In this document: one piece after another, positions 13,183 to 62,000 of the stretch
Position numbering within the stretch: position 1 is the stretch's first letter
Layout: each line of letters starts with the position of its first letter
Origin: Lytechinus pictus
Lineage: Eukaryota
Direction of reading: 5' to 3'
Assembly: GCF_037042905.1 (NCBI RefSeq)
Contig: NC_087245.1
Coordinates: 33,792,001 to 33,856,000 of the forward strand
DNA: 64,000 nucleotides
Made by a program: the position numbers and the translations under genes
The notes under the pieces: model-generated
The model's input: only the letters and a program-made list of their open reading frames with translations
What the model was told of the DNA's origin: nothing
Database searches by the model: none

Positions 13183-13243
<61 letters not shown>

Positions 13244-15283: not shown

Positions 15284-15367
15284 CTGGGAATGTTGAGTTT
15301 CTTTGGGGGCTATTGTCCATGTTTCCACATCCGATATGTACGATTTCGCAATGTGAGTGAAAAAATT

Positions 15368-18270: not shown

Positions 18271-18289
18271 TTAAAGTATGTCAGTGTGA

Positions 18290-37524: not shown

Positions 37525-38434
37525 GTGAGACCTGTTCTTTGACCGACTCAGTCAGAGCTTGAAGACACATGACCAACAAGCGAAGCTTTGCCAAAGGAAA
37601 CCTTTCTTGTAATACCATCCTCAGACAACGGTATGGCTGGCTGAACATCTCTTCAAAACTCAAGGGTCCTTCCAGCAAACTGTTTGTGCTATACCTCTCT
37701 TGTCCAGGATTAGGAAGGGTGCCCTGTCCTTCAGAACGACCGTTTCGAGATTCTGTCATGATGGCAGAGAGATTGTCGAGATGTGGCGATAAATGTATCA
37801 CATCACGCAAGAATGGGTACAAGTTTTCCATCTCCTCAACCAGATTTGATGTCACATATATATGTGATACACTATCTACACATTCAAGTTGATGTTCCGC
37901 TACACTATCGGCACCTATACCCCACTTTGCCACCTGGTTACCTTGTTCATCTTGATCGTATTTCGACCAGTCTGTATACAGATCTTTCCCTGACTTTATC
38001 TCTCTGTAGAAAGCCTGCCTATTGAATCCATGCCTTGATATTGAGGTCAAGTCTTTGCCTGACACACAAGAATCGTCTTCTTCAGAAGATGTTGGATCGG
38101 TTTGCGTACGCTTTTCTATCACAGACACATGTGAGATACTGTCTGCATTTTTTTCGCACTCCCCTAAATCTTCACAGCTGGCATCCTCTTTTACCTTCTG
38201 GCTACTGACCCGACGAAGATCTTCCACTGTCGTTGATTCTCTGTTAAACTTGTGTATAGATGATGGGACAGACAGTGGCCTGATGGAATCTTCATCAGCA
38301 GCCTTCTCTGTGATTTGTGGTGTAGAGATTATAAGAGAAGACTGGCCTGTCTCAATGACTTGTAGACTTCTTCGCTTCCTTTTCCTGGGATCATCTTGTG
38401 AGTGGCGCAGCTTTACCTCGCTGTCATATTCGAG
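37525..38434 (-). CDS. Large exon D of the VPS9-domain gene (S/E/D-rich insert plus VPS9 N-terminal helices)
   Basis: CATACAG acceptor and GTAAGT donor; 910 nt open, phase 0-1; ends FSQPYRCLRMVLQERFPLAKLRLLVMCLQAL, which is VPS9D1-like. Confidence 0.85.
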
Positions 38435-38686
38435 CTGTATGAATGTGGTATTGGACATTCATGATTAAATAATGCATTTTATATTTCTTTATCTTTATCC
38501 GTCACAGCATGCATATAAATATGACCCTAAGTTAAATCTTTGCTTTACTTTTCTCTGTCCGTTTTCCCCTATTTCTCATGCTTTTACTTTCGTTTCCCCA
38601 AAACTCCCCTAATTTTGTGATTAAACATCACAATAGAGTGGTAAAATATGGATTTCAGTGGCGGCACCTAGAGGAAGGGGGGGGGG

Positions 38687-41600
38687 TGTTACACCCACAA
38701 ATGTAATAATCGCCCACAAATGTAATAACGCCCACAAATGTAATAACACTTTACCCACAAATGTTATAACGCCCACAAATGTAATAACACTTTACCCACA
38801 AATGTAATAATTTCACCCACAAATGTAATAATGCACTTTACCCACAAATGTAATAATTTTTGATCGCCCACAAATGTAATAATGACTTTACCCACATATG
38901 TAATGAATTTGAAGGGATTTTTGCCGAATCCGTTCTAAACTAAAATCCTATAGTAATGCGTTCATATTGCAAAAAAGTGCAAAGTCTTTTTTTCCAGACC
39001 CGGTTAATCAAAAATTATAATATAAGTCCAAAGTCTTTTATTTCAGACCCGGTTGTTTAAAAAATCATAATATAAGTCCAAAGTATTTTTTTCCAGACCC
39101 GGTTATTTCAAAAATTATAATGTAAGTCCAAACTAAGATACGATAATGATATTCCAGTGGAAAAAAATGATAATCGAGCTTATTCTTTTCTCCAGACCCA
39201 GTTAATCAAAACTGGTGGAATTAATGTCTTTGTTGTTGTTTTACCTTATACGGTGCGTAATGTGAATATATGCGCTAAGAGTAAATTGAGAATCAAGTCT
39301 TTTCTCCAGACCCGGTTACTTAAAACTAAAGACTAAAACCCTTTACCCACAAATTAAATAATTTCACCCACAAATGTAATAATGCACTTTACCCACAAAT
39401 GTAATAATTTTTGATAGCCCACAAATGTAATAATGACTTTACCTACAAATGTTATAAATTTGAAGGGATTTTTGGCGAATATGTTCTAAACTAAAACCCT
39501 ATAGTAATGCGTTCATATAGCGCAAAGTCACAGTCTTTTTTCTCCAGACCCGGTTATATAAAACATTTAAACAATCTTCCAAATAAAGATCCCAAAATTA
39601 ATTCTTCTTAATGTTGAATAACATAGAAGTTTAGGGTAGTCTTTCCTACAGACCAAAATATTTCAAATAGAAAAAAAAAATGATAAATAATAATAAACAA
39701 AAACAAAGACCCCACGATCTTATTAATGTTGAACAAAATGCAAATATAGCGTAGTCTTTCCTCCAGACCCAGTTAAAAAAATAATTAAAAACACAACAAC
39801 ATCTACAAAACAAAGACCCTGCAATCTTATCAACATTGAATAGCATGGAAACATGGTGTAGTCTTTGCTCCAGACCCAGTTATTTCAAAATAGGAAGTTA
39901 TAAGAAACAATAAAAACAAACAAACAATATTAACAAAGAAAACAATATCATTGATGTAGAATAACGTTGTTGTTGTTATCTTGGGTTTTAAGGCGTGTAT
40001 CATTCAGATATGAATATTAACGCCAATGATTAATTTGCCGTTTTTGTTGTATGCGTTATCACAGGGTTTTTATAGTTTGGAAGATGCTGGAGTCTAAGTT
40101 TTAAGATTAATGTTTCTCTTAATTTGTATGTTTAAGAGAACTGGGTGTGGGGTAAAGACAACACTCTAAACCCAAGCATTTTAACTGGGTTTAATTTTGA
40201 AGATTGGTCTTAGCTTTGTTTTTTTTCTTCAATATTTGTTTATCTTTTAAGTAACCGGGTCTAGACGAAAGACTAAGCATAATACTCGTATTATTCCACA
40301 AAAATAAGAATATGACAAAGTCTTATGTTTTTAAGATTGTTTAAATTATTTCTTAAATGACTCGGTCTGGAATAAAGACAACGCTCTAAACATGTGCTTT
40401 TTACATGGTCTTAATTTGGAGGATTGTTGGTTCTTAGATTCGTTGCTGGGGCTGGGTTTTATTGCTTTTTTATTCTTGAAATAACTGTGTCTGGAGGAAG
40501 TCTACAATCGATCTTCATGTTATTCCACAGTAATTAAATTATTGGGTATTCGTTTTAGAATATTTGTAAAAACTATTTTATTTTTTTTCTTCAAATAATA
40601 ACCAAGTCTGGAGAAAGAATGTTAGCTTTACTCATGCATTATTACAATGTTTTGTAGGGGTCTTAGTATTATTTATAAAAAAAACTGGGTGTGGGGTAGA
40701 GACATATTTTTTTACTGGGTGTAACTTTTGGAGATTGGTCTTAGATTTGAGGTTTTTTAATTCATTTTTTAAATAACCGGGTCTGGAGGAAGGAGTACGT
40801 TTTAAAACTCGTGTTATTCCACAAGAATAAGAATATGATAGGGTCTTACGCTAGAAGATTTTTTTTTGTAGTTTATTTAATGATTAGGTCTGGAATAAAG
40901 ACAACGCTCTAAACCTCTTTTTAAAACAGGTTCTTAGGTTGAAGGATTGTTTGGTCTTAGATTTGGAGTTTTTTTATTATAACTATTAGCGTTATTTTGA
41001 AGAAAAAAAATGGGTCTGGCTGAAAGACTAGGCTATATGTCCATGTTATGCAGCATTAATAAGATTATGGGGTCTTTATACTGTTTTTGTTGTTGTTGTT
41101 GTTGTATTGTTATTTATAATTTTGGAATAACAGGGTTTTGAGAAAAGACTAAGCTCGATTTTCATTTTTATTCCACTGGAATATTATTATTGTATATTAG
41201 TTTGGACCTATATTATAGTTTTTTAAATAACCGGGTCTGGAAAAAAGACTTTGGACTTATATTATGATTTTTGAATTAACTGGGTCTGGAAAAAAGACTT
41301 TGGATTCATATTATAATTTTTGAATTAACGGGGTCTGGAAAAAAGACTTTGCACTTTTGTGCTATATGAACGCAGTACTATAGGGTTTTAGGTTTAATAA
41401 CCAGGACTGGAGAAAAGACTACGCTTGATTCTCAATTTACTCTTAGCGCATATATTCACAATACGCGCCATATAAGTTAAAACAACGACAAAGACATTAA
41501 TTCTACCAGTTTTGATTAACTGGGTCTTGAGAAAAGACTAAGCTCAATTCTCATTTTTATTCCACTTGAATATCATTATCGTATCTTAGTTTGGACTTAC

Positions 41601-42051
41601 ATTATATTTTTTTAATAACCGGGTCTGGAAAAAAAGACTTTGGACTTATATTATGATTTTCGAAACAACCGGGTCTGGAAAAAAGACTTTGGACTTATAT
41701 TATAGTTTTTGAAACAACCGGGTCTGAAATAAAAGACTTTGGACCTATATTATAATTTTTGATTAACCGGGTCTGGAAAAAAAGAACGCATTACTATAGG
41801 ATTTTAGTTTAGAACGGATTCGGCAAAAATCCCTTCAAATTCATTACATTTGTGGGTAAAGTCATTTTTACATTTGTGGGCGATCAAAAATTATTACATT
41901 TGTGGGTAAAGTGCATTATTACATTTGTGGGTGAAATTATTACAAATTATTACATTTGTGGGTTAAGTGTTATTACATTTGTGGGTAAAGTGTTATTACA
42001 TTTGTGGGCGTTATTACATTTGTGGGCGTCATTACATTTGTGGGTGCAACA
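38687..42051. mobile_element. Foldback-type non-autonomous DNA element with TGT...ACA termini (Ginger-like, tentative)
   Basis: TIR TGTT(A/G)CACCCACAAATGTAAT; subterminal arrays of CCCACAAATGTAATAA; internal TTCCAGACCCGGTT arrays in mirror orientation; inserted in poly-G; empty site at 43151-43175. Confidence 0.9.
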
Positions 42052-42661
42052 GGGGGGTCGGTCAGAACCTTTGCTGCCTAGAAAAAGATAGTGGGCAGAA
42101 TCCATCCCCCCCCCCCCTCTATATTTTTCACGATTAATCCAACGAGTGAAAATTTTTCAACCGCGCCGCTTACTGACTTTTTACTTTCAAATCTCGTTCA
42201 ATTTTTTAGACCAAATTTGCGATGCCCGAGTACGCGGTTACGAAATTATTCAACATTTTGTAAGTGCACTGCATGTCAGACTCAAAACTGCTCAAAAACG
42301 TGAGTTCATGTACAATTAAATTCAATGCAAATTGCGTATTTAGCCAAAATTCGTAAATGTATCATTATTTCTACTTTTACTGATTAAACTAAATTACTTT
42401 TGTCTTGTTTATCATCAGGGTCTTATTTACCAAGTATGATAATAACTGATGTAGAAATAAAGCAAACTGAACAAAAGACTAACAATTTGTAACAGACTAA
42501 TACCGCTTTCAGTAACTCACGATTCTTCGTTCCGCATCAAGCCCAAACTTACATAGTCGGCACCACGTACATGATGTAATAAAAATCGCGTTCAGTAACT
42601 ATAGCAGAGCCGCTCTACCTTTATGATCACCCATTCTAAAACTTGGGCACATAAGGGGTAG

Positions 42662-42918
42662 CTTTCATCCTCTTTTACCTTCTGGTTACTGACCTGACGG
42701 AGACCTTCCAATGTCGTTGATTCTCTGTTAAACTTGTGTATAGATGATGGGACAGACAGTGGCCTGATGGAATCTTCATCAGCAGCCTTCTCTGTGATTT
42801 GTGGTGTAGAGATTATAAGAGAAGACTGGCCTGTCTCAATGACTTGTAGACTTCTTCGCTTCCTTTTCCTGGGATCATCTTGTGAGTGGCGCAGCTTTAC
42901 CTCGCTGTCATATTCGAC
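42662..42918 (-). pseudogene. Truncated recent duplicate of the 5' part of exon D
   Basis: Near-identical to 38180-38434, with upstream intron sequence also duplicated to about 43197; frame runs into a stop at 42592. Confidence 0.85.
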
Positions 42919-43687
42919 CTGTATGAATGCAGAATTTGACATTCATAATTAAATAATGCATTTAATATTTTAAAAATTTATCAATCACAGCATGCATAGA
43001 AATATGACCCTAAGTTGAACATGCCTTACTTCTCTCTGTCCTTTTACCCCATTTCTCATTCTTTTACTTTCGTTTCCAAAACACTCCCCTAATTTTGTGA
43101 TTAGTCATCACAATAGAGTGGTAAAATATGAATTTCAGTGGCGGCACCTAGAGGAAGGGGGGGGGGGGTCGGTCAAAACCTTTGCTGCCTAGAAAAAATG
43201 TATAGTAACAAGCATATAGTCTTTAAGCTGTCACAAGCAGCTGTCAAGTAATTTAAAAATTCTCTACTGTTTAAATCTACACATTTTCTCATTTGATTGC
43301 GAAACTCTTTTGGAAAAATAAAAAAAAAGGGTTTCAATCATAGGGGAATTAGGAGAGCTCCCCAGTTTGAATCTATGTCCTCTATTTGTCCACCCTACTT
43401 TATAAATCGTGGTACCTCCACTGATGAAGTTGTGCTGGGATACCCGACCCCCGACTACGGATAAGGAATTTAATGGTTTTAAGTGAGTAGCCAAAAAACT
43501 GACAACTATGAGGCCTCTCAAATGGACTTGGTGGGATTGGTGAATGCCTTGCTGTCAATGTCGATGCTGCCACATCATCCTTTGTTTGGAACCTGTGCTG
43601 CCGACACACAAAAGCTTTCATTACTCATTTCCCCCCTACATATAATTACGATGTTTATATTTTTGATAATTTTAAATGGCTTAACAC

Positions 43688-44122
43688 CTGCAGCTGGACA
43701 CTTGGAGGGATGCACTTTACGGGTTGGTCATCAGGGACATCGCTCTGATCCGTTGCTTCAAGATCCACATCATTGAGGAATGGGTAGAGGTTTTCCATCT
43801 CCCTAACCAGATTTGAAGACACAGATTGATAGGATGCACTATTCTGCTCTAAATCTTCACCGCTGATAGCCTCATTTTGGTCATGATGTTTATGCGTATC
43901 AGCTGCAGCTCCTTCTGCTTGGTTGATGGAGCCTTGCGTTGATATTGAGCTGGTACCTCCGGTAGATATACCATTATATTCTTCTATAAATGATATTGGA
44001 TCAACTTCTGGAATTCCAGACTGAAGGATATCAATGACCCTTTCACCACTCAAATTCATGTTTCTTGGATCAGCTGAAGGGAGGAGCATCTGAAGTTGCT
44101 TTGCATCAGCATCATATGCGAG
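43688..44122 (-). CDS. Divergent paralog of exon D (D')
   Basis: TTCTCTGCAG acceptor, phase 0; LAYDADAK vs LEYDSEVK and SNLVREMENLYPFL vs SNLVEEMENLYPFL; the donor (CAG/GTGTTA) is weak and uncertain. Confidence 0.6.
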
Positions 44123-44219
44123 CTGCAGAGAATTATAATGTTTTGACATCATGATCTGAGTTATTGTATAACGTCTTGTGATGTTCATATAATAACATCA
44201 ACAAATGTTATTTTTAAAA

Positions 44220-45310
44220 TGTGGTTCATGAACCACATTCTCGCCTGATTTCGCAATCAAAATATGCGATATGATCTTTTTACGCATAGATGACCTCTGA
44301 CTTAATTACCCAATAACTATCTGTACCAACTGTGATCAAAATTGATCTAGAGATAAAGAAATGAAAGCAAGTTTCTACAACCTTTTGACCCCTAGATGAG
44401 CTTTGACCCCATCACACTCATGAACAAGCCTGTGTTATTACCCGAGGATCATATGTACCAAGTGTGAACATAATTTATGCACAAATAAAGAAATGAAAAC
44501 AAGTTTAACAAAACATTGACCCTATCGTCGTCAATAATACACATGTGGTATTACCCAAGGACCATTCAAACCAAGTGTGATCAAAAGTGATGCAGAAATG
44601 AGTAAATGAGAGCAAGTTGATCAAAAACTTAAAGGATGGATATGACCTTATATCATTTGACCTTTTGACCCCTAGATGATCTTTGACCTGATCATTCTCA
44701 TGGGCTCACTGTCACATGTATTATTACCTAAGGGTCATATTTACCAAGTATGATCATAACTGATGTAGAAATAAAGAAATGAGAGCAAATTGAACAAAAA
44801 ACTAACAATTTTGTAACAGACTAATACCACTTTCAGTAACTTACGATTCTTCGGTCGGCTCTGCTACTGTGTCTCACTTTTCAACCAAACTTGGGTTGTA
44901 TAGATGTACTACGGGACCGACATACGTTATGGTGCAGTTGGATGTCACATAAGGTCAAGGGTCATTTCAGGTCAAATGTTAAAGTTTACGTGCGAGACTC
45001 TCTTATGATACATAACTCTGCAACCATGTCTCACTTTTCAACCAAACTTGGGTTGTAGATGCACTAGTACGTGACCTACATGTATGGTACAGCCAGAGGT
45101 CACATGGTAAGGTCAAAGGTCGTTTCAGGTCAAACTTTAAAGTTTACCTGCAAGGCTCTCGTATGACAAATAACTTTACAACCGTTACTCACTTTTCAAC
45201 TGAGCTAGGGTTGTATGCACTGAATGGATCTGTATACATGGTGCCGTCGGAGTTCATGTAACAAGGTCAAAGGTCAATTGAGTTCATATGTTAAAGTTGT
45301 TTTGAAATGT
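44220..45310. repeat. Interspersed repeats rich in TGACC/AGGTCA motifs
   Basis: Recurrent TTTGACCCCTAGATGA, ACCAAGTGTGATCAAAA and AAGGTCAAAGGTCA units; 44730-44855 is also copied at 42417-42535. Confidence 0.55.
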
Positions 45311-46291: not shown

Positions 46292-46674
46292 TACTTCTCT
46301 TTTTATACATATAAATATTTTATACATATAAATATATATATATACACACACAAACACCCTCACACGCATACCCGCTCACACACACGCACACATGTATATA
46401 TGGTTTTCTTTCGGCACTATTGCTTTTATAGGGGAAATAAATTAGTTCAAATTATTCACCATATTTGCTAGTACAATGTAACACTGGGGTAGGTGTATTT
46501 ATAGATGATAATGTCATTGATATGCTTAGGCCCATAGTTGATTCATTTGAATAAACTTACGGTGGACATCACCTTTAATTATAACTACCTACAGCTCCCA
46601 CGTGATCTGATGGACTCGGCGACTCTTTAGTGGTAATAAAATATTATGAAATAAGTAGCATTATATTTGCTTAC

Positions 46675-46785
46675 CTCTGAGAAGTGACTCCTTATTTTGA
46701 AGGTAGTGGTTTGGGCGCAAGATTGATAATTCGTTAATGTTGAAAACCCGTCCTTAGCTCCAGATGAGCGACGTTGCTTTGATTT
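46675..46785 (-). CDS. Exon B of the VPS9-domain gene, right copy
   Basis: CTAG acceptor and GTAAGC donor; 111 nt open; phase 0 joins exon C. Confidence 0.75.
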
Positions 46786-47025
46786 CTAGTATAAGCATAT
46801 ATAATTAGGAAACGTCACTCTTATTCAATGATATACAAATTCTCATTTACTGTAAGAATGAAAAAAAATGTAGTCATAGTCTTAAAAAAGTCTTAAAGTT
46901 GGAAAATGGTATCATTAAAATATTAGTAAGTTGCGCTTTCAAGTGAAAGTTTTGATTGTTGCAGGTGCTACATGTTATTTAAAAATGGCCCTTTCATCTA
47001 GTTACTTTTACTTACATTGTTTTGA

Positions 47026-47383
47026 ATAATAATAGTAATAATAATAATCCGCATTTATATAGCGCTAAACACATCGGAACGACGTCTCTAATCGCTTTGC
47101 AGAAATAATATTATCACCCCGGTCATCGGATCCTTGCATGCCCGCATATAATGTATGTACCTTCTCCACTCCCTGGGGAGCATTCCAACAAGAGTTCCAA
47201 GACCAATTGCTAAACGTACTACATAGGCTTTCGCATCATACCGGGTACCCATTTAACACCTGGGTGGAGAGTGGCAAATTGTAGATTGACGCCTTGCCAA
47301 AGGACGCTAGGCCATGGTGGGATTCGATCTCACGACCCTCTGATTACAAGGCAAGAGTCAGAACCGCTACACCACGGCGCTTC
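47026..47383 (-). mobile_element. tRNA-derived SINE (paralog of 572-927)
   Basis: Same sequence with the B box mutated to GAGATCGAATC; insertion predates the duplication. Confidence 0.85.
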
Positions 47384-48181
47384 CAAAGAAAATAATGTAA
47401 ATTTTAGAATTAAAATGCATTGTATTTCTTCCATTTTCCCTTCTCAAAGGAAAAGGAACGAAGGGGGAGAAAGGGAAGGGAAAAGGGAAAGGGAGAGATA
47501 AGGATAAGGGAAGAAAGGAGGGGGAAAAGAAGAAAAGGGAAGGGAGAAAAAAGTGAAAAATATAAAAGGAAAGGAAGGGGAATGCGAGAGAAAAACAGAA
47601 GAAAAAGAAGGGAGATGGGAAAGAAAAGGAAGGGGAAAAGAGAGAAAGAAAAAAGGGGAGAGAAAAAGAAAAGGATATAGCGAAAAAGAAAAGAGGGAGA
47701 AGAAAATTTTCAGGCGAGAGAAAAGAGAAGGAAAAGGTAGAGAGAGAAAAGGAAGGGAAAAGAAGAGAAGGAAAAAAAAGAAAAGGGAAAGGGGAAGGAA
47801 TGGATACGAGTAGAAAAAAGGGAGAAGAAAGGGGACGAAAAAATAGAAAGTGAAGGAAAAGATAGGAATGGGATAAGAAAAAGTGGAAGAGAAAGGGAAA
47901 TGAAAAGAGGAAAGGGACAAATAAAGATGGGAAGAAAGATGCCCAAGGAGGAGAAGACCCCCCCCCAAAAAAAAATATATATATATATAGACTTGAAACT
48001 CAAACTGTTGACTTGAATCTCGAAATTTAGACTTGAAACTCGAACTGTTGGCTTGAAACTCCTAAGTTAGACTTGAACTTGAAATTTAGACATGAAACTC
48101 GAACTTTTGACTTGAAACTCAAAATGCAGACTCGAAACGCGAAGAAATAAAACACTTTCAGAACTGAATCACCCAACTTAC

Positions 48182-48358
48182 CAGCCTTGGTCTCGGTGTA
48201 GTATGTTCGGAGAGAAAGTTTATTGAGGTTTGATTGCATGTATCCAGCACTTCAAGAATCAGAGAATGATGTGCCATCTTCATCGTGATATCGCTCCGCA
48301 ATTTCTTCACCAAAGTGTAAAAATAAGAAACAGGTTTTTGCTTTTGAGCTTACAGTTT
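48182..48358 (-). pseudogene. Exon A, right copy, with a +1 frameshift
   Basis: TTTAG acceptor and GTAAGT donor; 177 nt vs 176 nt in the paralog; extra base in the T5 run at 48335-48339. Confidence 0.7.
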
Positions 48359-48849
48359 CTAAAGATATAAAATGTACGTGTTTGGAAAATGAAGAAAAAA
48401 AAATCAGTGATTATCTGAGTCTTAATTGTTATTTAGAGGTCCGATTTTAACCAGGTTTTTGCGATGCCTGTCTATCCGAGTCAAAATTGATGAATGTAAA
48501 TTGTATTGGGTTGCTTCATCCTAATGATACTATCGATTCAGCTTTTGTAACAACATTTTACACCTATAATTCATAGTAACCACATAATTTATGTAGTAAT
48601 TTTCAAAATAATTTGAGAGCTGGTACGATATTAAATGAACTTGTCCTATTTGCATGACAGATTTCATGGGTCTATATTGTATTATGTAGGCATTGAGGGG
48701 ATGGAAGGGAGAGTATACTAGATTGTCGAAATCTGTGGGGGAGATGCCTTATCCCTCATCAAAATAGTCAACCGCTGTGTATACCCGTATATAAAAACAC
48801 GAGTTTTGGATTAAAAAAAGAACAATGAAATTGATATCCATGCGGCCCC

Positions 48850-48889
<40 letters not shown>

Positions 48890-48894
<5 letters not shown>

Positions 48895-49292
48895 AAAGTT
48901 ATACATGTACAACAGCTTTGGCAACTCTTTTATTTAAATATTGTAAAGAAATGGATGAAGAGAACAATGGTAGGCGTAGCTTAAATCAAGGTTCCCCAGA
49001 GCTATCTACCCTTTGGAAAAATTGGTGATGCCGAAAAAATGTCCCTGCCGGGACAATAGGATCTGACAATAGGATCTATCTGACGGTCAATAGGATCGGG
49101 GTCGCCCTAGCCACTAACCCGTCTCTGTGGTCTAGTGGTTAAGGCACCGGCGTTCAAAGCTGGGGGCCCGGGTTCGATTCCCGGCAGGGACATTTTTTCG
49201 GCATCACCAATTTTTCCAAAGGGTAGATAGCTCTGGGGAACCTTGATTTAAGCTACGCCTACCATTGTTCTCTTCATCCATTTCTTTACAAT
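48890..49292. mobile_element. tRNA-carrying non-autonomous element, copy A (inverted arms around a tRNA gene)
   Basis: 48939-49051 is the reverse complement of 49180-49292; flanked by (TA)n; absent from the unit 1 paralog. Confidence 0.85.
49121..49192 (+). tRNA. tRNA-like gene with TCA anticodon (opal-suppressor type), short variable loop
   Basis: Cloverleaf GTCTCTG/CAGGGAC, GTCT/AGGC, CCGGC-GTTCAAA-GCTGG, CCGGG-TTCGATT-CCCGG; A and B boxes; T6 immediately downstream. Confidence 0.75.
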
Positions 49293-49354
49293 ATATATAT
49301 ATATATATATATAGATAGATATATATATATATATATATATAGAAATTTTCCTCA

Positions 49355-49413
49355 CCTCTGGTCTACCAATGGTTTCGCGCCTCGATCACAGGCGGCTCAT
49401 CAGGACACTGAAG
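49355..49413 (-). ncRNA. Type I hammerhead ribozyme (3' pLTR)
   Basis: GTC-CTGATGA-GCCGCCT...AGGCGC-GAAAC-CATTG-GTA-GAC on the minus strand. Confidence 0.85.
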
Positions 49414-49636
49414 CTAGTTGGATTTGGTGGGGGCCCACGGTTGGGGCAATGGATGCATTTCACGGTCCGGCGGTTCTTTGTTCCTTCTTTTGTGACGGCA
49501 TGTACTGATTAGTTCGGACCTTCGGTTGAGTGAGTTTTTCTTGTGAGTTGCGATAATGAGTTTTTCGTCTAAGCATAGGTTGCAGATTCCACTTCCCCGC
49601 ATTGCCAAGTTGGATTTTTTCATTATTGCCCATTTT

Positions 49637-50196
49637 CCCGGGGGGGCCACTTCCATTCACGAGTGGATACCATGCGCGACCATGGGGTCTCAAAAAGCAC
49701 CCTAAACACGTAATTTCCATATTCTGAGAATGCACCCCTTAACAAGTATTGGCGTCTAAAACCCTACCCTTAACAAGTATTGGAAATAAAACGATACTCT
49801 TGGCAAATATTTCCTGAAATGAACCCCTAAACAAGTACAGGAATGTTTTATTGTTACGGGTCCTTCGGTCTTCGTCTTTAATTTATTTGGTTTAGTACGA
49901 CCCCACCTTCTAACACCTCGCGCAAATCGGACTCTAAAGTCTAAACACGAAGTGTTGGGGCAAAAAGGACATCCTTTATAAAACATTTTAATTTTGTTTT
50001 ATCATCCCCGCAAATTCGACCCTAAACACGTAATTTTCCTAGCGAAATAGATACCCTTTTTTCATTATTTTTGTGATTTTGACACCCTTATCACGTTACG
50101 TACGTAACGTGCCCTATCGTGAAAAAGACATCCTTTTTACGTGTTTTTTTTGGTCGCGCATGGTATCCACTCGTCAATGTAAGTGGCCCCCCCGGG
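49637..50196. mobile_element. MITE with CCCGGGGGGGCCACTT TIR inserted in the PLE endonuclease
   Basis: Imperfect TIRs of about 45 bp; 8-bp TSD CCCATTTT (49629-49636 and 50197-50204); removal restores YNLKWAIMKK. Confidence 0.92.
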
Positions 50197-50910
50197 CCCA
50201 TTTTAAATTGTATCGTTCCCCTTTCTTTTGTAGATCCCATATGTATTTAGATAGTTCTGTTTCGTTTTGGTATTTCTCGTTTCGGAAAGATTTTGTGTGG
50301 TTTCTGAATCTTTCTTTAAAAGTTCCCCCTGCTAGGCCAAAATACACTTTGGTGATTGCATCTCTTTGGCCGTGCGTGACAGATGCTTTGTATATTATCG
50401 ACTTGGCCAGGCAGTTTCCCCGTAGAGGGCAGTCTTCCTTTACTCGGCAGTTGCATGTTTTTTCCGGAGGGTTCTCTTCTTCTTTTGATTTTCTGATGAC
50501 TTTTTCGTTGTGTGATTTGATGATCGCATTTACGTTTTTCATGCAGCTGTAGCTAATTTTTACAGTATTTTTGTTAAAAATCTTGTGCAGTTTGTGTCCC
50601 TTGGGGAAATGCTTTTCGACTAGGTTGATGAATTTTCCCCCGATGTTGGTTTTGACATTACTGCTGTAGGGTGGGTTGAACCACGTGACGTTTCTTTGGC
50701 GTTTTTTCCTGGTTTTGTTGGGCTTTTGGTTTTTGGCGAATTCGATGTCACCATGGTAACCGCTGTTGCTCAGGGCTTCCTTGTATACCGGTGCTGCGGT
50801 CTTGAATTTTTCTTCATTTGAAGATAGGGATGAGATTCTTGTTTGTACTGATGTGGGAATTTGCTTCGTGATATATATATAAATACATATATAGATATAT
50901 ATCCAACTAG

Positions 50911-50969
50911 CTTCAGTGTCCTGATGAGCCGCCTGTGATCGAGGCGCGAAACCATTGGTAGACCAGAGG
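50911..50969 (+). ncRNA. Type I hammerhead ribozyme (inverted 5' pLTR)
   Basis: CTGATGA at 50921-50927, stem II, GAAA at 50948-50951, GTA cleavage triplet at 50958-50960, stem I GTC/GAC. Confidence 0.85.
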
Positions 50970-51048
50970 TGAGGAAAATTTCTACAACGCTCTGCTTCAG
51001 TTGAAACATCGAGCACTTTCCCTGAACTTGATACATCCCACTTTAATT

Positions 51049-51084
<36 letters not shown>

Positions 51085-51332
51085 AAAGAAATGGATGAAG
51101 AGAACAATGGTAGGCGTAGCTTAAATCAAGGTTCCCCAGAGCTATCTACCCTTCGGAAAAATTGGTAATGCCGAAAAAATGTCCCTGCCGGGAATCGAAC
51201 CATCGAACCCATGGCGGCTTGTCATTGTTCGAAACCCACCTTCACCCGACAAAGGAAATTATAATTGGTATAGTGTCGAAAATTTGTCTATCTGACGGTC
51301 AATCGGATCGGGGTCGCCCTAGCCACTGACCC

Positions 51333-51404
51333 GTCTCTGTGGTCTAGTGGTTAAGGCACCGGCGTTCAAAGCTGGGGGCCCGGGTTCGATTCCCGGCAGG
51401 GACA
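51333..51404 (+). tRNA. tRNA-like gene, TCA anticodon (copy 2)
   Basis: Identical to 49121-49192; followed by T6. Confidence 0.75.
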
Positions 51405-51738
51405 TTTTTTCGGCATTACCAATTTTTCCGAAGGGTAGATAGCTCTGGGGAACCTTGATTTAAGCTACGCCTACCATTGTTCTCTTCATCCATTTCTTTA
51501 CAATATTTAAATAAAAAAGAGTTGCCAAAGCTGTTGTACATGTATAACTTTACACATTTGTATACGTTCCCCCTACGTGTACTGTATCAAAGCAATAGCT
51601 TTGATCCAGCTGAAGCATGGCGGCTTGTCATTGTTCGAAACCCACCTTCACCCGACAAAGGAAATTATAATTGGTATAGTGTCGAAAATTTGTCTATCTG
51701 ACGGTCAATCGGATCGGGGTCGCCCTAGCCACTGACCC

Positions 51739-51810
51739 GTCTCTGTGGTCTAGTGGTTAAGGCACCGGCGTTCAAAGCTGGGGGCCCGGGTTCGATTCCC
51801 GGCAGGGACA
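51739..51810 (+). tRNA. tRNA-like gene, TCA anticodon (copy 3)
   Basis: Identical to 49121-49192; followed by T6. Confidence 0.75.
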
Positions 51811-51995
51811 TTTTTTCGGCATTACCAATTTTTCCGAAGGGTAGATAGCTCTGGGGAACCTTGATTTAAGCTACGCCTACCATTGTTCTCTTCATCCATT
51901 TCTTTACAATATTTAAATAAAAAAGAGTTGCCAAAGCTGTTGTACATGTATAACTTTACACATTTATATATATATATATATATATACATGTATAT

Positions 51996-53914
51996 AGTAA
52001 GCCCCCCCCCTAAATCAAATTGCTGTAACTTTCGAACGGAATATTTTTTAAATATGATATTCCTTAGGTGGTTTTCTACAGTCATTAAGCAACTCCTGGT
52101 GAAAAATGAAATTGATAGATTGAGTCATGCATGAATAATCAAAGATTGAATTATAATTTATAAATGACCATTTTGGAAAGTCACAAGGATCGTTTTTCAG
52201 ATTGTGTAAATACAGAGTTGGGCAAAGGTTGTTTTTAGGTGAATTTTATGGTGTTAATGGTGTTTTACAACCATCATTTAACCACTCCACACACAATTTT
52301 GATAACGTATGTTTATGGTTGAGTGAGCACAATTTTTTGTGACCTATCAACATAGGGGTTTATGGTAGTATCCTCTACAACTTGTTAAAACGTGTTAACA
52401 TTCGAAAATGTTGGTGGCTCCACCAATTACTCGGCTTCTCCCCATTTTAAAATTCTGGATCCACCACTGATTTGTCCATAAATTCAACTGATCCTGAGAT
52501 ATTGTTAGGAAAAGAATACATTTTTGCAGTGTAAAGAGTATTCTTTCCCAAGTTTTCGAATATGTTTGCTCAACCATGAAAATGTAAAAAGTTCGGAAAG
52601 TGTGTGGTGATAAAAATGATGGATGATAAAAACAACAGCAATTAGGTCACATTTGAAACCGAATTTGCCCCCATTATTTACTTTATTACCCCCTCAAAAT
52701 GAGTCTGTGAGATTGAAAATGCCCCTTTTCATACTTCGATGCGTGCTCACTCATCCATAAATAAACAAATCGATTTCATTTTTGCACAAGATTCTGCCCA
52801 TAGGTTGATAAACATTACTACCAAATGACATTGCTAAAGACAGCCTTGAAAAAAAAGTTCCACCATATTGAATAAGGGGTTACTTATTCGTAAACATATA
52901 CACCCATAGTGTATACAATGTCTTTGAGAGAGGAAGTCAAAATTTTAACAAAAGTGAAATGAGGGTTTGTTTCATGGACAGTTTTTGTTACTTCTGACAA
53001 CAGTTTCTTTTTCATGGAACTTCGCACATGGCTTCAGAATAACACTATCCAAAAGGTGCGTACACCAAAATAATCATTCGATACGGCACAGAGTGGGTCC
53101 AAGGCCTTGAACTTTCTCCTCATTTGCATAATTTTCGAATATTGTGTGCTCACTGAAGCATTAGACATCTGGATTTTCATGAAAATAAAATCAAATGAAC
53201 TAGCAAGGAGGTTTGTGACAGATATCCATAGTTAGCAATTGCATTTTTTCCAATAACGTAAAAAAAGAGCTAATCACATTCCACATGTTCATTCAAGCGT
53301 GAATGTTTAATTAACCGCCTTTGAATCATTGAAGCGTGATAATTGGTCATAAACATAACGAAAAGAGTTGAGAAAAGATGTCAGTTCCCAAAATGAAACA
53401 ATACTTGCCTGTGATATTTGAAAATCGTATTTTTGTTTTCATTAAATGTACATTGAACCGTGAAACGATAAGTATTGTTGAAGATACTCTTCCCAAAAAA
53501 AACTGTCATCATATTTGATCATTTTATCGATAGAAATGTGGAAAAAAAACAAATTATAGCAAATTTTGATTTGTGTTTATTCAACCGTAAAATTTATCCA
53601 AAAAAAGTTGTATCGTCCTTTAGAAAGTACTTTTTACAAGCCTTCTGACTATTTTTCATGATGAGAAAGTGGAATTAGTTCCAATAAAATGGAATCAAAG
53701 GCATGATATTTGGCTTGTGCATGACTGTTGAAAAGTGACATTTTTGTCTTCTTGTGGTGCTCACTGGAGCATGACAAAAAAATACGTCCATTACATTTAC
53801 TCAGAGGGTAGCCTATAAGATTACCTACACGCTCATATAAAAAAATATATTAAAAACTCCCGTTGGTTCGGAAATTATGGATGTTTGTTTAAGGGGACTT
53901 ACTTTTTTGTTGTG
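51996..53914. mobile_element. Non-autonomous DNA element, EnSpm/CACTA-like (CAC terminus, TA context)
   Basis: Right end reads CACAACAAAAAAGTAAGTCCCCTTAAACAAA on the minus strand; left AGTAAGCCCCCCCCCTAAATCAAA is a truncated match. Confidence 0.55.
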
Positions 53915-54189: not shown

Positions 54190-54220
<31 letters not shown>

Positions 54221-56230
54221 ATATGTTTATGGCTCTTTGAGAGCATTTGCTATTCTTTCTTCTCGATCTGCAGCAAAAAAAATGAATTTGATTACCTCGT
54301 CAACCTTCTGAAGAAGTGGCCGAGATGCATCCGACGTTGTATCTATGTACAGAGATTATACAGGAAACCTAATGAGAACGGATTGTAACAGTTCGAGGGG
54401 GCAATGGGCATCCTCATAATCTGGGTCAACAGCGAGGTTTGGCATATTAAACCTGATAATCGGTACAGGAGGTACCCCACCCCCAATGACAGACAATAGT
54501 AGGCCATGAACGTTACCTTTTGGCGTATTAAGCCACTCCCATATGGAAGGCAAAGACGCTCATTAAAGCCAACTACCTTACGTATGCTCTAGCAACCGCA
54601 CGTAAGCTTTTTCTTAACCTTGCGTGAGCTAATGGACACATCGGCGAGCTTGATTTTGGGTGTTAAACATGAAAAGCATTCAACTTGTTTCGATAAAAGG
54701 GACTCTCTATGTTTAATGGAGGGGGGGGGGGGGCTACCCTACACGTTGATAAGATTTCACACTTCATATCTTACATCCATGAAACCCCTTCCTCTTATTT
54801 GCTGGAAGTATTTTGAATTACTTTGAAATTATCGAGAAAATGAGGAATATTCGTATCTTCGGTTTCAAAAATCTAAGTTGAAGTTAAACCGTCACGTTAA
54901 ATTGGTATGATATTGTATGAGCCTTGATAAGACTCTTGTGAATCCAACTAAATAGGCATTCAAATAGGCCTATATACATTTGATGCTAACAATGCAAGAA
55001 GAAGTTATTGAATCGTGGATACAAGTGCTAAGAATGTATACCCAATACACAAAAAGTTACATTTCATTTTAACTAGTTTCTGAGGGTTCTCTTCAATTTA
55101 ACTAATTTTCATTCCCACCCAAGCAGGTGTCAAAGTTTAGTGCTTATTTAGAGTGAATATAGTGCATAAATGGATATTTTACAGGTGCATTGATTCAAAT
55201 TGAATCATATTTTTTTCAAATCATTTTATAACTAAATATTTATTATTTCCTAAACTTCAAGACTTTTTAAAATTAATATTTGGCCCTGGTTTTTTTTACC
55301 AAAAAGTCACTTCATTCAATATTCCCAAAAAGTGCTCACTAAAAATTTGGCCGAAAGTATTTAACATAATAGCTGATAATGGAGCATCATTGTCTTGTAC
55401 CACCTTCAACAGTCCAATTTTCTAATATTCTTGAACCCAATTATCCCAGAGCTTGATGAACAAGCAACCATATTGCAATATCATCTAGTTGACAAATTAG
55501 TGGCCATATGAAACTGAGTCCGTGCCTCTTTCCATCACAAAGAATGATTCATTTTATTTTAATCAGATATTTTTTATTCAAATATGATTTTATTGATTTA
55601 TTTTATATAATCTTACCATACAGTACTGGACCAACAATAAGATTTACTCCAAATATTGTTCTTAAAGAGTATATTATTAATCACAAAACCTTATTTAAAA
55701 TATATAATAATAATAATAATTGAGGAGGAAATCAGAGACTGTTTTGAGACGAAACGTTAAGCCTTACTCGGGGAGGGGGGGGGGCAAAATTGTGCACAAA
55801 CTTAGTTTGCAATAAGACGATATGGAAGGGATCCAGTCAAATTTAATATCATCATTCATTTCCCGTGTAAATTGATATTTCCCAATATTCAAATTTACAC
55901 ATGTAAGCAGTGCATCCAAGACGAAATAACAATACTGTTGAAAGTAGTGATGTTTGATGATCTCATCTCATCATAGCTGTAATTGTGAATATATATGAAA
56001 ATTAAGAAAAACTATAAAGATTGAAACGCTCTTATGAAAATCTACACACCCGCCCGTCACATTTTACAGCGTTCTTTCTTGCAACAGCACATATTAAGAA
56101 GTGTCACTGAACATGACCATAAGTATATATAAATGCACAACTGAACATGAGTATAAGTATCTATAATTTTAGACGGCGATCTTTACTAGGATGCCTTATA
56201 CAGCAAGGATTAGGAGAATAAACCTCTTAC

Positions 56231-56245
56231 CATCTGACGGGAGAT
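56231..56245 (-). CDS. Candidate 15-nt microexon, right copy
   Basis: CTCAG/ATCTCCCGTCAGATG/GTAAGA. Confidence 0.5.
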
Positions 56246-59036
56246 CTGAGAATGTTGAGTTACTTTGGGGGCTATTGTCCATGTTTCCACATCCGATATT
56301 TACGATTTCGCAATGTGAGTGAGAACATTTTAGTCTACCGATCGACTACGTTATTATGTAGTGCGCGGGTTGCGGTACACTATTCAATTTTATTATCATG
56401 TAATCATGTGAAAACAAAACAAAACAAAGTTCACTTATCGTAATAGAATGCGAAGAGTTGAGCATATTGTCTGCAGACATTGACCCTGACCCGATCAATA
56501 GACGGGTCAATATACGACCAAAATACCCTTACCCGGAACAAATTGCAACAAATGATTTTTTAACGGCTTTTTGTTCCGATCCCCAGTTTTCGATAAAGAC
56601 ATTCCAGCTATTCTTTGTTATGTGACGGGCATTTTCAATATATTTTCTGCGTTTTTTAATCCGTCCCAGTTGCAGTTGTGAAAATTCCCTAATTACTGCG
56701 GTGCAACTCTCAAGGCAGTAAGTAACCTTTATGCGTAGGTGTTTAATAATAATAATAATAATTAACATTTATATTGCCAACTGATAACCGTAACACAGAA
56801 GTTGCGTCGCATATCTAATATTATTATTATTTATATTCCTTCTATGAATATTCTTGAGTATACTTTACATAATAAATTATTGTTAAATTGGTCACGGTGC
56901 TCGGGGAATAAAATGTAATTCAACACTATTCTGCATGAATCTGCAGTGCATTTTGCTATTCATTGATGAAATGTGAACGAAGTATCGCATAAATATCGGT
57001 ACATGAAAATGTCACTGTTTTTTTTCTGGCCACATCTGTCAGCCTATAAAAAAGGGGCGGATCCAGGTTTTTCCAAAGGGGGGGGGGGGCACATTTTCCA
57101 TTGTAAAAATCTGACAATGAAAACTAAAAATGTTAAGGATTTCAACGAAAAAAAATTATTAAAAAAGTACATTTCAACGAAAAATTTTGACATTTTGTTT
57201 TTACTGCAGTAGTTCTTCACCGGACCAATATTACCATTAATTATCGAAAATTTCGAAAGTAATCATAAACATGAATGTTCCTGTGAAAATGGAAATTTTT
57301 AGAAAGTTGAAATCTTGTAACTCTATCTAGCAATTTGCCTATCAACTATTCGGTTTTGCTTTTGACTTTGGTTAAAGGTCGAATAATTGCACAAGACAAG
57401 TCAATATTCAGTAGGTCATGCGTTTCTTCCATTATTCTGCATTGGTACAATCTCCATTGGTATAGGTATAGTATCAAAATATAATTGAGTGATATCCTTC
57501 AAAAAATGGAACTTTAAGAACAGGTCTTTTGAATGATTGAAATAGCGATTTTATTTGAACATGGGTTGAAATTTTAAAGATACCCTTGTTTGAGAATTAG
57601 TGATGTACGTTATAAAAAATCTGCTATTATGATTGTTGGCATGTAGACAAATTTTACCGATGATAATACAAATTAACTAAATTGTCATGTTTACAGTGGC
57701 TTAACTACGGGGGGGGGGGCACGGGGCCACGTTTCCCCCCCCCCCCCCCCCCCCATCGGCTGGCCCAAAAAAAAAGAAGAAGAAATTATATTATATAATT
57801 GACTATGGTGACATATCATCTTTATGAATTCCTGAAAAAATAGTCCTTAAAATGTCCCTGTTTGGGGTCAATATATACAAAAATTTCAGCTCGCGCTTCG
57901 CGCACGCATTGTTTGTTTAGTAAGAGAAGTACATATCATCATTACAAAAGTTTGCTTATAATTTCCCCTTTTTGGTTTGAATATAAAAATTTTCAGCTAG
58001 CGCTTCGCGCTTGCATGATCTAATTTGTGAGATACATACATCTGTTTAATTGCACAGTCCTTAAAATGTCTCTATTAGGTCAGTATACCTGGCAAGTGAG
58101 GGCGCTTAGCGCGCCCTCTAAGTGTGACTCAAAATATGTACTGGTGCCCCCCCATGCCGTGACCCCAGCTTGTGTTGCACCCTTTTTATCGACGTGAACG
58201 TCTTTGGATATAAGCTAATTGCACCTCCGCCCCTTAGTGACTCCACTTTTAACATTGCTGATTATAATGATTGTGTATTTTTCCCCGATAGTGCCTTACA
58301 ATATGATTTTAGAGTTACTATTACTATATTACTATTACTATTACTATCCATATCCTTTTTATTTCTGTACATTTGGACACCAAGACCATCTACAAACCGT
58401 GTTTTCTTGCTGAAATACAATTGTGAGTGGCACAGGAATTGCTTATCAACCAATTATGTAATTCTATGCATTTTGACACCCAAATCATCTACATATCATA
58501 TTTTATTGTCGATATACAAATTTTATTGGTTTAGAAAAAGAAATCTTTAGATTACACAATATTTATACACACTTGTACACATCTATAAAATCTGCATAAA
58601 CTGTACACTTGTGCATTGTTTATAATTGCACCTTAACTGTAAATTTCATTGTGACATAGGGAGAAGGGGGAGCATTATGGAGGCGGAGCATCGATGGATA
58701 CGGAAGGAGCTTTCAAGTTCTACTCATGTACAGGTGTGTTCCATTTGCTGATTGTATAAAGGGCAGTTCCGTAAAGTAATCGAACTTTGTTCTATTTGTA
58801 GACAAATTTTACCGATGATAATAAAAATTAACTCAATTGTCATGTTTACAGTGGCTTAACTACGGGGGGGGGGGGGGCACGGGGCCACATGAATATAAAC
58901 TACTCCAACGTGATCATTTAAAAGCAATACCACCAATTATATGAACTAAAAAGTAAGTGAACTCATTCAAGGAAGATCACACAAATGGTAGACAGACATG
59001 TGAATCTTATGGAATTGCCCAGAAGCTATTACATTT

Positions 59037-62000
59037 CATAGTTCATAGTTCATAATTCATTTATTACTTCCTTTCACAAAAACATTCATACATGGTAGTT
59101 AAAATAAATGATAATGGAATATATAGTAAGATAAACAAAATGATTGTCAGCGCTAAACATACATTTAGGTTGTTACATAAATCATATCATTTACATTATA
59201 GAGTAGGATTCTGGAGACAAAGGTTACACAAAATTTCACATTTTGAAAGAAAGAGGAGACCTTAAAAAAGCAAGGCTTGTCAAGACAAGGTCCCCAATAA
59301 GGATACGATAAGTGTATAGATATTTTACATACTTTGAATAAGACTACACATCTAAATCTACCTATGGAAAGAAAAGGAAAGAAGGAAAAACAGAGAGAAA
59401 TTATCAAAAATAGGAAAGAGTGAATATATATATATGACTTTATATACAAAATGAAGAGGACATAAGGACAGATAAGAGAGGGGTTATCAAATGAGGAGAA
59501 AGGGTTTATACAGTGCGTATCAAAAAATAGTTTACACTTAGAAAAAATCCTGTAAAATTATGCATTTGTAATATCCTGAAAATTTTTCCACATTTTAACA
59601 TTAGTACAGATCCATTTAAGCAAATGACGATATAACTGTCGAAAAATATTTCTGCTTGAGTGAGCACCACTTACTTTTGAAGAGTTAGTGAAAAATGATT
59701 TGCGCAGAATTTTGAAATAGTTATGCGAATTAAAGTAGACCTTAATCCTGAAGTACGCATGGAATTTAGCTAGTAAAATTGATTTGAAGATATATTTTAC
59801 CTTTTTAAACTTGTTTCCTTGCCCAAAATACTTCGAAGAGTGCATTGCGCCCCACCCCTCTCCCCCACACACCAAGGCCATCGTGACGATATTTGCTTTA
59901 CACTGATCTGTGATTTACATGGAATGCCTTAGGCTTGATTTTCATTTTGTTAATCATTGTAAAGCTTGGGAAAAGTGTGGAGAAACAAGTATTAAATGAA
60001 ATATGAAATGTAAACCCACTTTATATGATAAAAACTTAGTGAAAAAATGCTGGAGATGTTTGATATAAACTTTTGTTCAGATTCAGTTATGTCCTCAGAT
60101 CCAGCTGGCACACAAAAGGTAAGGGTTGTGCTTACTAAGCATTAAAATCTCAATTTGGGCGGCAAAGTTGTTACAAAATGCTTGAATGTATCTGTTTTAT
60201 TAATTGACTAAAAGTCCAAGGGAAATGTATGAAAAATGTTTCGCAGGGTACGTTTGATTTCGCCCTTTCCCCTTGACACAGCGTGAAAACGAGCATTTCT
60301 GCGCAATCAGATTTCTGCGAGCTTTGGACAGTGCTCATTCAAGTGTAACATTCTGTCAAAACTTTTACTTTCATTGGATAGATGAGACCCAAACCCAAGA
60401 TTATATGTGAAAAAACTACCTACATGTTGTATATTTTTTAATTCCCAGGGCTTTTTCAAAGTGTAAACTTTTTTTGATACGCACTGTATACAGGGAGAAA
60501 AGTCGTTGAGACGGCGAAGAGAGAGAGAGAGGGAGAGTTATATTGGGGAGGTGTATAAAGTTTATAAGATAAACGCCAAAAGAGGAGAGGGAAAAAGAGG
60601 TGTACAACCCAAAAAACAAAGGATTATAATAAGTAATCTATTTTATACTAAATATTTTGATGGGTTTCAGTATAAACTTTCAGCAAATGTAATTTTTAGC
60701 TTACGTTTAAAGACCGACACACTGACAGCATGAGTTACTTCAATTATGTCAATGGGAAGTGTGTTCCAAAACTTGGGACCAGTTACGGATAATGTATTCA
60801 GAGCAAAGGTAGTTCTTACCCGTGGTATATGAAGAGCAGCTGCTTGCCTTGTGTTATGATTATGAATTTGACAGTTTTTAATGAATAGTTGAGCCAATGC
60901 ATTTGGGGAAGTACCATTTTCAAAATCATACATGATTGAACCTAACTGCAAAAGATAGATATCCTCTATCTTCAATAATTTATTACTGTGAAACAAAACA
61001 TTAGTATGAGCACGATAACTAGCATGAAAATCAAGTCGAATTGTCCTTTTCTGTGCGATAAGTATCTTTTCTAATTGTGTTCTTTGTGACTTGCCCCATG
61101 CCAACACTCCGTAATTAAGATAAGGTAAAACTAGAGTAGAATATAGAATACGCAAAGTTTCTTTTGGTACAAAAGAACGTAATTTATAGATTACACCAGT
61201 ATTTTTTACATGACTTTACATACACTGTTGCAATGAGACACCTACATCTAGGTCAACTTCTCATCAATTTGTAATCCAAGAAACTTGGTGGATCTTACCC
61301 TCATAATGTCAACATTGTCAAATAATAAACCTTGTGGTAAAACTGACAGAGAATTACCAAAGAGCACATAGTTAGTTTTCTGAAGATTCAAGGACAACTT
61401 GTTTGCATCGATCCACTGAACTACATATTCCAATTTAGTGTTAACCGTTGCTGACAAGGCATTGGGATCTTTATGAGAAAAAAATAAACTCGAATCCTCA
61501 GCAAAAAATGAATGACAAAACATCAAATGACAGACTAAAATCATTTATATACAGTATGAAGAGAAGGGGGCCAAGAAGAGATCCCTGAGGGACTCCACAC
61601 GACATGGTTTAATAACTTGAGTCGGTTCCATATTACGATACATATTGTTTTCTGTCAGTTAAGTAACTCCAGAACCAACTAAGAGCTATGCCTCTAACTC
61701 CATAATTCTCTAGCTTATTAGAATTTCATGATCAACCGTATCAAAAGCTTTTGAGAAATACAAGAAAATGCCTATCGTGTGGTGATGGTTATCTAAAGAT
61801 CGAGCCACTTTATCAACGAAATTCAGTATAGCATGGGTAGTGGTATGTTTTTCACGAAACCCAAACTGGTATTTTGAAAGTATTTCAGTCTTTTTGAAAA
61901 AGGTTTCTGTTCTATTTTATACAAGTTTTTCCAAAATGTTTGAGAAAGATATCAATAATGAAATTAGTCTATAATTACTGACTTTGAGGATCACCCTTTT

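Follow-up and report, generated by a model that had tools for sequence, protein, structure and literature searches.

The window analysed here is a stretch of 64,000 nucleotides of the Lytechinus pictus genome (assembly GCF_037042905.1, contig NC_087245.1, forward-strand positions 33,792,001 to 33,856,000), and coordinates given below without further label count from its first letter. It carries two insertions, A and B, of a non-coding unit of 405-406 bp that contains a complete tRNA gene with the anticodon UCA and appears to have been mobilised in the manner of Penelope-like elements (PLEs). The layout of the two insertions was established by self-BLAST and direct reading of the sequence, and the tandem period by Tandem Repeats Finder (TRF). 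Unit numbering begins at window position 51210 (insertion B, + strand). The insertions and their immediate flanks are as follows.

48853..48889, no strand: (TA)n target left of insertion A (TRF)
48890..49053, - strand: insertion A, inverted 5'-truncated arm, unit ~347 to 182, 3' tail included (self-BLAST, reading)
49054..49074, + strand: insertion A, junction filler made of reiterated short copies of nearby unit sequence, 13-bp period (TRF, reading)
49075..49290, + strand: insertion A, forward arm, unit 78-294, without tail (self-BLAST, reading)
49121..49192, + strand: tRNA of insertion A, 72 nt, UCA anticodon, G32, A73, then T6 (ARAGORN, Rfam)
49291..49341, no strand: (TA)n separating insertion A from a neighbouring Hydra-clade PLE, described below (TRF)
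51051..51080, no strand: (TA)n left of insertion B (TRF)
51081..51201, - strand: insertion B, inverted arm, unit 294 to 174, without tail (self-BLAST, reading)
51202..51209, + strand: insertion B, 8-bp duplication of the inverted-arm end (reading)
51210..51615, + strand: insertion B, complete 406-bp unit 1 (TRF)
51333..51404, + strand: tRNA(UCA) of insertion B unit 1, then T6 (ARAGORN, Rfam)
51616..51964, + strand: insertion B, unit 2 to the distal 3' end (~position 349), tail present (TRF, reading)
51739..51810, + strand: tRNA(UCA) of insertion B unit 2, then T6 (ARAGORN, Rfam)
51965..51996, no strand: (TA)n right of insertion B (TRF)

This arrangement of two insertions in (TA)n, each with an inverted partial arm and a forward copy, agrees with the original prediction made from the letters of the window. 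That prediction also described insertion B as two tandem 406-bp units; the tandem is confirmed (TRF period 406, 99% match, 51210 to ~51965), but it comprises 1.9 units, not two. The diagnostic variants that had been reported are real, being common to the arms within each insertion and different between insertions; at these sites insertion A has the alleles of the family consensus and insertion B does not. An analogue of the empty site of insertion A is present at window ~2440-2585, where a paralogous repeat end has the same (TA)n without the tRNA element.

Each of the three window tRNAs matches Rfam RF00005 with 58.9 bits (E 2.8e-11). The predicted fold has a 4-nt variable loop, 7+5 acceptor/T stems, a G1-C72 pair, A73 and intact A and B boxes. 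Its internal position in the unit and the T6 directly behind it had been recognised from the start, and both hold in all three copies; the ~170 bp then assigned to its upstream sequence correspond to 123 bp in the unit numbered from 51210 and to ~175 bp counted from the distal 3'-end site of the preceding unit. The earlier description was silent on the anticodon, which is complementary to the UGA stop codon. ARAGORN labels the gene SeC, a label that rests on the UCA anticodon only. Selenocysteine tRNAs (tRNA-Sec) have a long variable arm and a 13-bp acceptor/T axis (9/4 fold), and this identity was rejected on account of the 4-nt variable loop, the 7+5 stems and the lack of a 9/4 fold. The cloverleaf, A and B boxes, terminator and UCA of an opal suppressor are all present; position 32, where a functional suppressor would be expected to have a pyrimidine and where 5/5 host tRNAs fetched have one, is a G in both families of the element (see below).

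The 812-Mb genome was searched with sequence patterns whose reversed versions gave 0 matches. A 45-base stretch spanning the anticodon has 1,560 exact matches, while relaxed patterns gave 1,833 and 1,981, or about two thousand copies genome-wide. The family to which A and B belong (family 1) was sampled in 20 regions around best hits (39 of 1,109 candidates scored) plus the window, a set of young, full-length copies. With the tRNA strand taken as sense, 34/39 internal 3' ends lie at unit ~294 or ~347 and run into TA/CA repeats. The five exceptions are a stub, two fragments separated by a further insertion and two atypical ends. The 5' ends are spread over the whole unit; inverted arms have no fixed length, and insertions often lack one. 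Junctions bear short reiterated fillers. An extension (tail) of ~53 nt is found at one end only in 8 of the 10 insertions that have two arms and two 3' ends, which is the PLE signature described in part of PMC8557442 and is matched by the ~65-bp tail of the neighbouring Hydra-clade copy. Private variants are common to the arms or units of single insertions in A, B and six further loci (L032, L033, L038, L039, L046 and L047), bearing out the proposal that the inverted arm was copied from the same template.

An ordinary short interspersed element (SINE) or a miniature inverted-repeat transposable element (MITE) would look different. Fixed terminal inverted repeats (TIRs) with a target-site duplication (TSD), or copies beginning at the tRNA 5' end, had been named in the original prediction as marks of a plain MITE or a plain SINE. 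No fixed TIRs or TSD are discernible in the sampled insertions, and breaks within ~8 bases of the tRNA start number 9 genome-wide against 1,560-1,981 tRNA copies. T5-T7 stands directly 3' of A73 in nearly all copies of both families, in agreement with the view that this is not a SINE with a read-through body. Nor is there a long terminal repeat (LTR) layout of the Helenus type: no internal region separates the units, the longest purine run is 9 and no TSD is discernible. No copy is fused to a PLE open reading frame (ORF) in the 21 regions examined. SINE, MITE and Helenus-type identities were therefore rejected on the PLE-type ends, the internal tRNA with its T run and the absence of TIR/TSD, and the anatomy of the element is, as judged from its ends and junctions, PLE-type.

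Arrays reach 17, 21 and 44 units. The 21-unit array (L085, G000:C4:26.000-26.009 Mb) has 3- and 7-unit higher-order periods and another (L045) has period 2; array growth is probably partly recombinational. The periodicity of these two arrays can be regarded as the element turning into satellite DNA. Independent insertions share a (TA)n tract or sit in neighbouring ones, including family 1 beside its sister family, at L032, L036, L048, L049, L066 and L077, suggesting hot spots or local re-insertion.

The sister family was first met as a locus 72% identical to the 3' half of the unit, in a pattern search for host tRNAs. It counts 222 candidates, with 48 matches at 76-97% identity, several of them with inverted arms, and it is older than family 1. 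Twenty of its regions were fetched, and its consensus aligns with that of family 1 along the whole unit. The tRNA is identical at 62/72 positions versus 102/183 in the 5' flank and 93/150 in the 3' flank (56-62%; tRNA against flanks taken together, 195/333, Fisher p 6e-6). Eight of the ten tRNA differences fall in stems, at five pairs, and all of these are still paired; acceptor pairs 2 and 6 and the anticodon-stem pair 28-42 are doubly compensated. In simulation, eight randomly placed changes keep all pairs with a probability of 3e-5 to 1.4e-3, or 0.024 if all are transitions. Pair counts on 16 copies, with the structure supplied by the analyst, agree with a preserved cloverleaf; RNAalifold recovered the acceptor and T stems but favoured a different pairing of the D and anticodon regions in the middle, and its output lacks the full cloverleaf. 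A possible compensated hairpin in the 3' part depends on gap placement. The compensation lies outside the promoter boxes and therefore points to selection on RNA structure.

Variation within family 1 leads in the same direction. Of the variants shared by at least two units of the same insertion, 3 lie in the tRNA, where all of them preserve pairing, and 38 lie outside it; the corresponding counts for single-unit variants are 13 and 37 (Fisher p 0.026). Among 37 variants listed from RNA reads, 1 falls in the tRNA (a U-A/U-G wobble) where ~6.6 were expected (p 0.007). Copies therefore seem to decay freely after insertion, but the transposing template keeps an intact cloverleaf, and selection on each transposing template implies action in cis. 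The statistics thus show, at the level of the sequences compared, a folded tRNA selected in cis and intact in the copy that transposes. The sister family and its compensatory changes are what is new here about this element.

Both families retain UCA, U33, purine 37 and G32, along with the A and B boxes and the run of T. Judged by the two consensuses, UCA predates their split and did not arise within the young family by a recent point mutation; three bases kept in two families are not proof of selection on the anticodon itself. In the reading favoured below, UCA together with G32 is a conserved loop feature and probably a poor decoder. Copies with a UCC anticodon are 12 only, against 1,833 matches of the arm pattern, and TCA is found in 97 of the first 100 matches listed. 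A Gly(UCC) subfamily as ancestor was rejected: the 12 UCC copies are scattered, and UCA copies are among the nearest neighbours of one of them. The five host tRNAs compared (Glu and Gly) have the D or T arm in common with the unit, the best three at 74-77% local identity, and a near host parent was rejected among these five, Trp, Arg and Cys tRNAs being outside the comparison. Host tRNA-Gly(UCC) and tRNA-Gly(GCC) genes form clusters at G000:C13:22.08-22.15 Mb and G000:C3:30.19-30.34 Mb.

No hammerhead ribozyme was found in either family by Rfam on the unit or by a search for hammerhead cores, and the sister family is without one. Retrozyme membership, which demands a type I hammerhead in each unit, therefore fails, although the length of the tandem non-coding unit lies within the 150-450 bp of retrozymes. 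Hammerhead-like words do occur across the unit junction of insertion B; a relic at unit 401-25 was rejected on the grounds that these are private alleles, that the majority alleles differ (RNA reads and three other runs) and that the sister family lacks it. A selenocysteine insertion sequence (SECIS), a second B box and a T-loop reading of the 3' hairpin with the anticodon loop were likewise rejected, by eye, as inconsistent across both families. The three other sequencing runs contain near-identical copies and may stem from the same or a very close species or from host carry-over, and for that reason cannot serve to test conservation. Relatives were also sought in metagenome and viral sequences, with 0 matches.

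Between the two insertions lies a PLE with its own inverted pseudo-LTR, as had been predicted, interrupted by a further element.

49342..50870, - strand: 5'-truncated Hydra-clade PLE, C-terminal GIY-YIG, CxCx5C linker, no CCHH
49637..50196, no strand: 560-bp MITE in the Hydra endonuclease ORF, 46-bp TIRs, 8-bp TSD (49629-49636 / 50197-50204)
50895..51050, + strand: inverted Hydra pseudo-LTR, hammerhead core at 50921, ~65-bp tail absent from the other end

A second type I hammerhead core, at 49403 in the 3' untranslated region, gives both pseudo-LTR copies a type I hammerhead. The Hydra clade is characterised by a C-terminal GIY-YIG without CCHH, a CxCx5C linker, a canonical hammerhead and (TA)n targets (described in part of PMC8557442), and the element at 49342-51050 is assigned to it by its domain features as read from the sequence. 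A Pfam search gave no match; a relative 52% identical to it (L051) has the RWK and DKT motifs. No sequence is common to the Hydra PLE and the tRNA unit. That PLEs adjoin arrays is most plausibly due to a common use of (TA)n as target. At three loci the 3' end of one hammerhead-core family stands just upstream of the array in the same orientation (L035:1779-2126; L041:1993-2340; L087 right end), as a possible helper or a shared target, and another hammerhead-core 3' end stands beside two arrays (L043:3170-3280; L085 left end). A high-copy, apparently intact Neptune-like family with an ~890-aa ORF ending in TGA has dozens of near-identical copies (L052, G000:C1:2.944-2.947 Mb); as a helper it was rejected, since nothing similar to the unit is present in the 4 kb retrieved, although these possibly end before the Neptune 3' end.

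Other repeats of the window were noted in passing. A 2.4-kb repeat ending in (TA)n has two copies (65-2507 and 46521-48909, 87% identical). A TA-flanked repeat is found in varying orientation beside tRNA-element insertions at three unrelated loci (window 51997-53000; L031:725-1910; L044:1136-2316). A large degenerate tandem region, ACATC-rich on the + strand, spans 25565-28456, and nested inverted and tandem repeats (18-56-bp units and a 158-bp unit), likely several MITE or Helitron-type elements, occupy 37799-45298. Collinear blocks at 13202-25164 and 54190-63531, 83-98% identical, represent a local duplication broken by different insertions.

The original prediction of a non-autonomous, PLE-mobilised tRNA cassette is supported and is consistent with every test run. 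We favour, with a probability of roughly 70%, a non-autonomous retroelement of ~405 nt that a PLE reverse transcriptase (RT)-endonuclease targeting (TA)n copies in trans, with the cloverleaf in place of the hammerhead. In its best reading the element is a ribozyme-less, retrozyme-like PLE satellite that would use the host tRNA machinery (processing and/or RNA polymerase III (Pol III)) for its template. The positions of the ends show PLE-type, target-primed copying that starts at one of the two 3' sites (unit ~294 or ~347) in (TA)n. It proceeds upstream across one or more units and breaks off at a random point, and a frequent template switch yields the inverted second arm, made from the same template. 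Each insertion would pass through a single-unit bottleneck with seamless junctions, as retrozymes do. No other module of the unit is both structured and under selection, and the tRNA fold is therefore taken as the processing signal; we infer that it replaces the retrozyme hammerhead and that the host tRNA machinery makes a unit-length, seamlessly re-copied template. RNA of animal retrozymes is cut by the hammerhead and most likely circularised by RtcB, as described in part of PMC7229834. By the favoured route, to which we give somewhat less than even odds, the cloverleaf would direct one cut per unit, for example in the anticodon loop, and an RtcB-type ligation would close the circle. Tentatively, and less likely than this, Pol III might start at one tRNA, read through the first T6 and end at the next, and the RT would jump from tRNA to tRNA on the resulting terminally redundant RNA.

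Several observations weigh against this reading. The T6 immediately behind the tRNA would be expected to terminate Pol III. Among the five PLE ends compared, which represent a minority of the families and no Naiads, none resembles the unit so as to mark its helper. In one RNA-seq run of the same species label, 2,089 of 12.9 million reads derive from the element, 302 of them spanning junctions; reads are equal on both strands, their depth tracks the genomic copy profile, no start or end pile-ups or discrete ends are seen in this run, and the share of reads is several-fold below the roughly 0.1% estimated as the unit's share of the genome. This profile shows no RNA specific to the element and looks like passive read-through, in a type of library that would miss mature tRNA and small circles. 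The higher-order periods in the 21-unit array indicate that an inserted element can extend its array at the DNA level, and long arrays are therefore no proof of rolling-circle copying. The loci analysed are top hits rather than a random sample, the covariation comes from two families only, and the count of variants in RNA reads covers 37 listed rows, 11 further rows standing outside the list.

The best surviving alternative, which we consider unlikely, is that the tRNA works in translation. It might be matured and charged and read UGA for a helper PLE with an in-frame UGA, or the element RNA might dock at the helper's UGA stop and capture the RT-endonuclease, much as Alu uses the signal recognition particle (SRP). 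The rarity of UCC copies, the bases kept around UCA in both families and the integrity of the stems, A and B boxes, T6 and G1-C72 with A73 would all suit such a tRNA. PLEs with recoded UGA exist among the Naiads (PMC8557442, in part), and 2 of the 5 PLE ORF ends seen, that of the high-copy Neptune among them, stop with TGA. However, no family-wide in-frame TGA occurs among the matches listed (150 Hydra, 139 Neptune RT and 150 Neptune endonuclease), and for these a UGA-recoded helper was rejected; with a Naiad query, no protein with an N-terminal endonuclease appeared among 12 of 150 matches. A suppressor shared in trans would leave the selection on each transposing copy unexplained. G32 and the absence of CCA at unit junctions also speak against a role in translation, and the three unchanged bases are not significant alone. 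In one version, no more probable than the general one, the element would use a working UGA-reading tRNA of its own in cis, gaining access to ribosomes that stop at UGA in the helper PLE mRNA, or read through it, and thereby capturing the enzyme of the helper.

Slightly less probable still is that the tRNA acts solely as the kind of internal Pol III promoter that SINEs and Helenus have, its fold being a leftover. The intact A and B boxes fit, and Helenus keeps promoter boxes alone (PMC10886601, in part), but the compensatory changes in the acceptor and anticodon stems lie outside the boxes and 5' ends do not pile up at the tRNA start. The idea of the tRNA as a neutral passenger, taken up a single time by a PLE satellite and with UCA as an inherited point mutation, would account for the neutral decay after insertion, with single-unit variants hitting the tRNA freely, and for the passive look of the RNA, but is highly improbable given the pair-preserving divergence between families, the depletion of template-level variants in the tRNA and the lack of a near parent among the host tRNAs fetched. 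Equally improbable is mobility at the DNA level (rolling circle of the Helitron/Replitron type, or MITE) followed by satellite-like expansion: arrays of up to 44 units and higher-order periods in one of them would agree with it, but the fixed 3' and random 5' ends, back-to-back inverted arms, one-ended tail, fillers and selection on the RNA fold match PLEs, and TIR/TSD are lacking.

Among known systems, the preferred PLE satellite comes closest to the animal non-LTR retrozymes (parts of PMC7229834 and of bioRxiv 10.64898/2026.07.22.740005), with which it has in common non-coding units of 150-450 bp, a range from monomers to long arrays, and a dependence on PLEs and a circular intermediate that have both been proposed. 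What defines retrozymes is a type I hammerhead in each unit, whereas a complete, structurally selected tRNA stands in its place here. Non-autonomous PLE derivatives (Chlamys MRC1, Naiad-type; PMC8557442, in part) are alike in pseudo-LTR-like partial tandems, an inverted 5'-truncated arm, a one-ended tail, (TA)n and the absence of a canonical hammerhead; that source describes no tRNA in them (it uses the word once, for tRNA-Sec), and the tRNA unit has no 3' similarity to an autonomous family compared. Helenus, Cassandra and TRIMp3 (PMC10886601, in part) are likewise non-autonomous retroelements with a gene for a small RNA in the terminal repeat, but with two LTRs, a primer-binding site, a polypurine tract, a 4-5-bp TSD and conservation of the promoter box only, in contrast to PLE-type ends and a conserved fold. 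tRNA-derived SINEs share the tRNA-related Pol III promoter, retroposition and a microsatellite 3' flank; in the unit, by contrast, the tRNA lies internally with T6 behind it, copies start elsewhere, and arms are tandem and inverted. With tRNA-Sec and opal suppressors the unit tRNA has UCA in common, but it has no long variable arm or 9/4 fold, has G32 and exists in ~2,000 mobile copies. Phage theta ribozyme/suppressor-tRNA pairs reportedly combine a mobile genome carrying a stop-codon tRNA with a hepatitis delta virus (HDV)-like ribozyme and a recoding system; no recoded partner or ribozyme was found for the tRNA unit. A literature search, with Repbase, Dfam, subscription journals and supplements outside it, found no published description of such an element.

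Part of PMC8557442 treats as open by what means PLEs produce tandem and inverted insertions and why a hammerhead is dispensable for some of them. With a natural substrate of 405 nt that requires a folded tRNA to be mobile, this question becomes testable. The element parallels Helenus and Cassandra in another class of retrotransposons, with a conserved fold, and would represent a third means, next to ribozymes and SINE promoters, by which small RNA parasites exploit the host RNA machinery. A tRNA gene amplified thousands-fold by a PLE will also inflate the counts of 'SeC/suppressor' genes in genome annotation, and raises the question of how the host tolerates ~2,000 tRNA genes with an opal anticodon; if the tRNA did read UGA, this many copies would also raise UGA read-through in the host.

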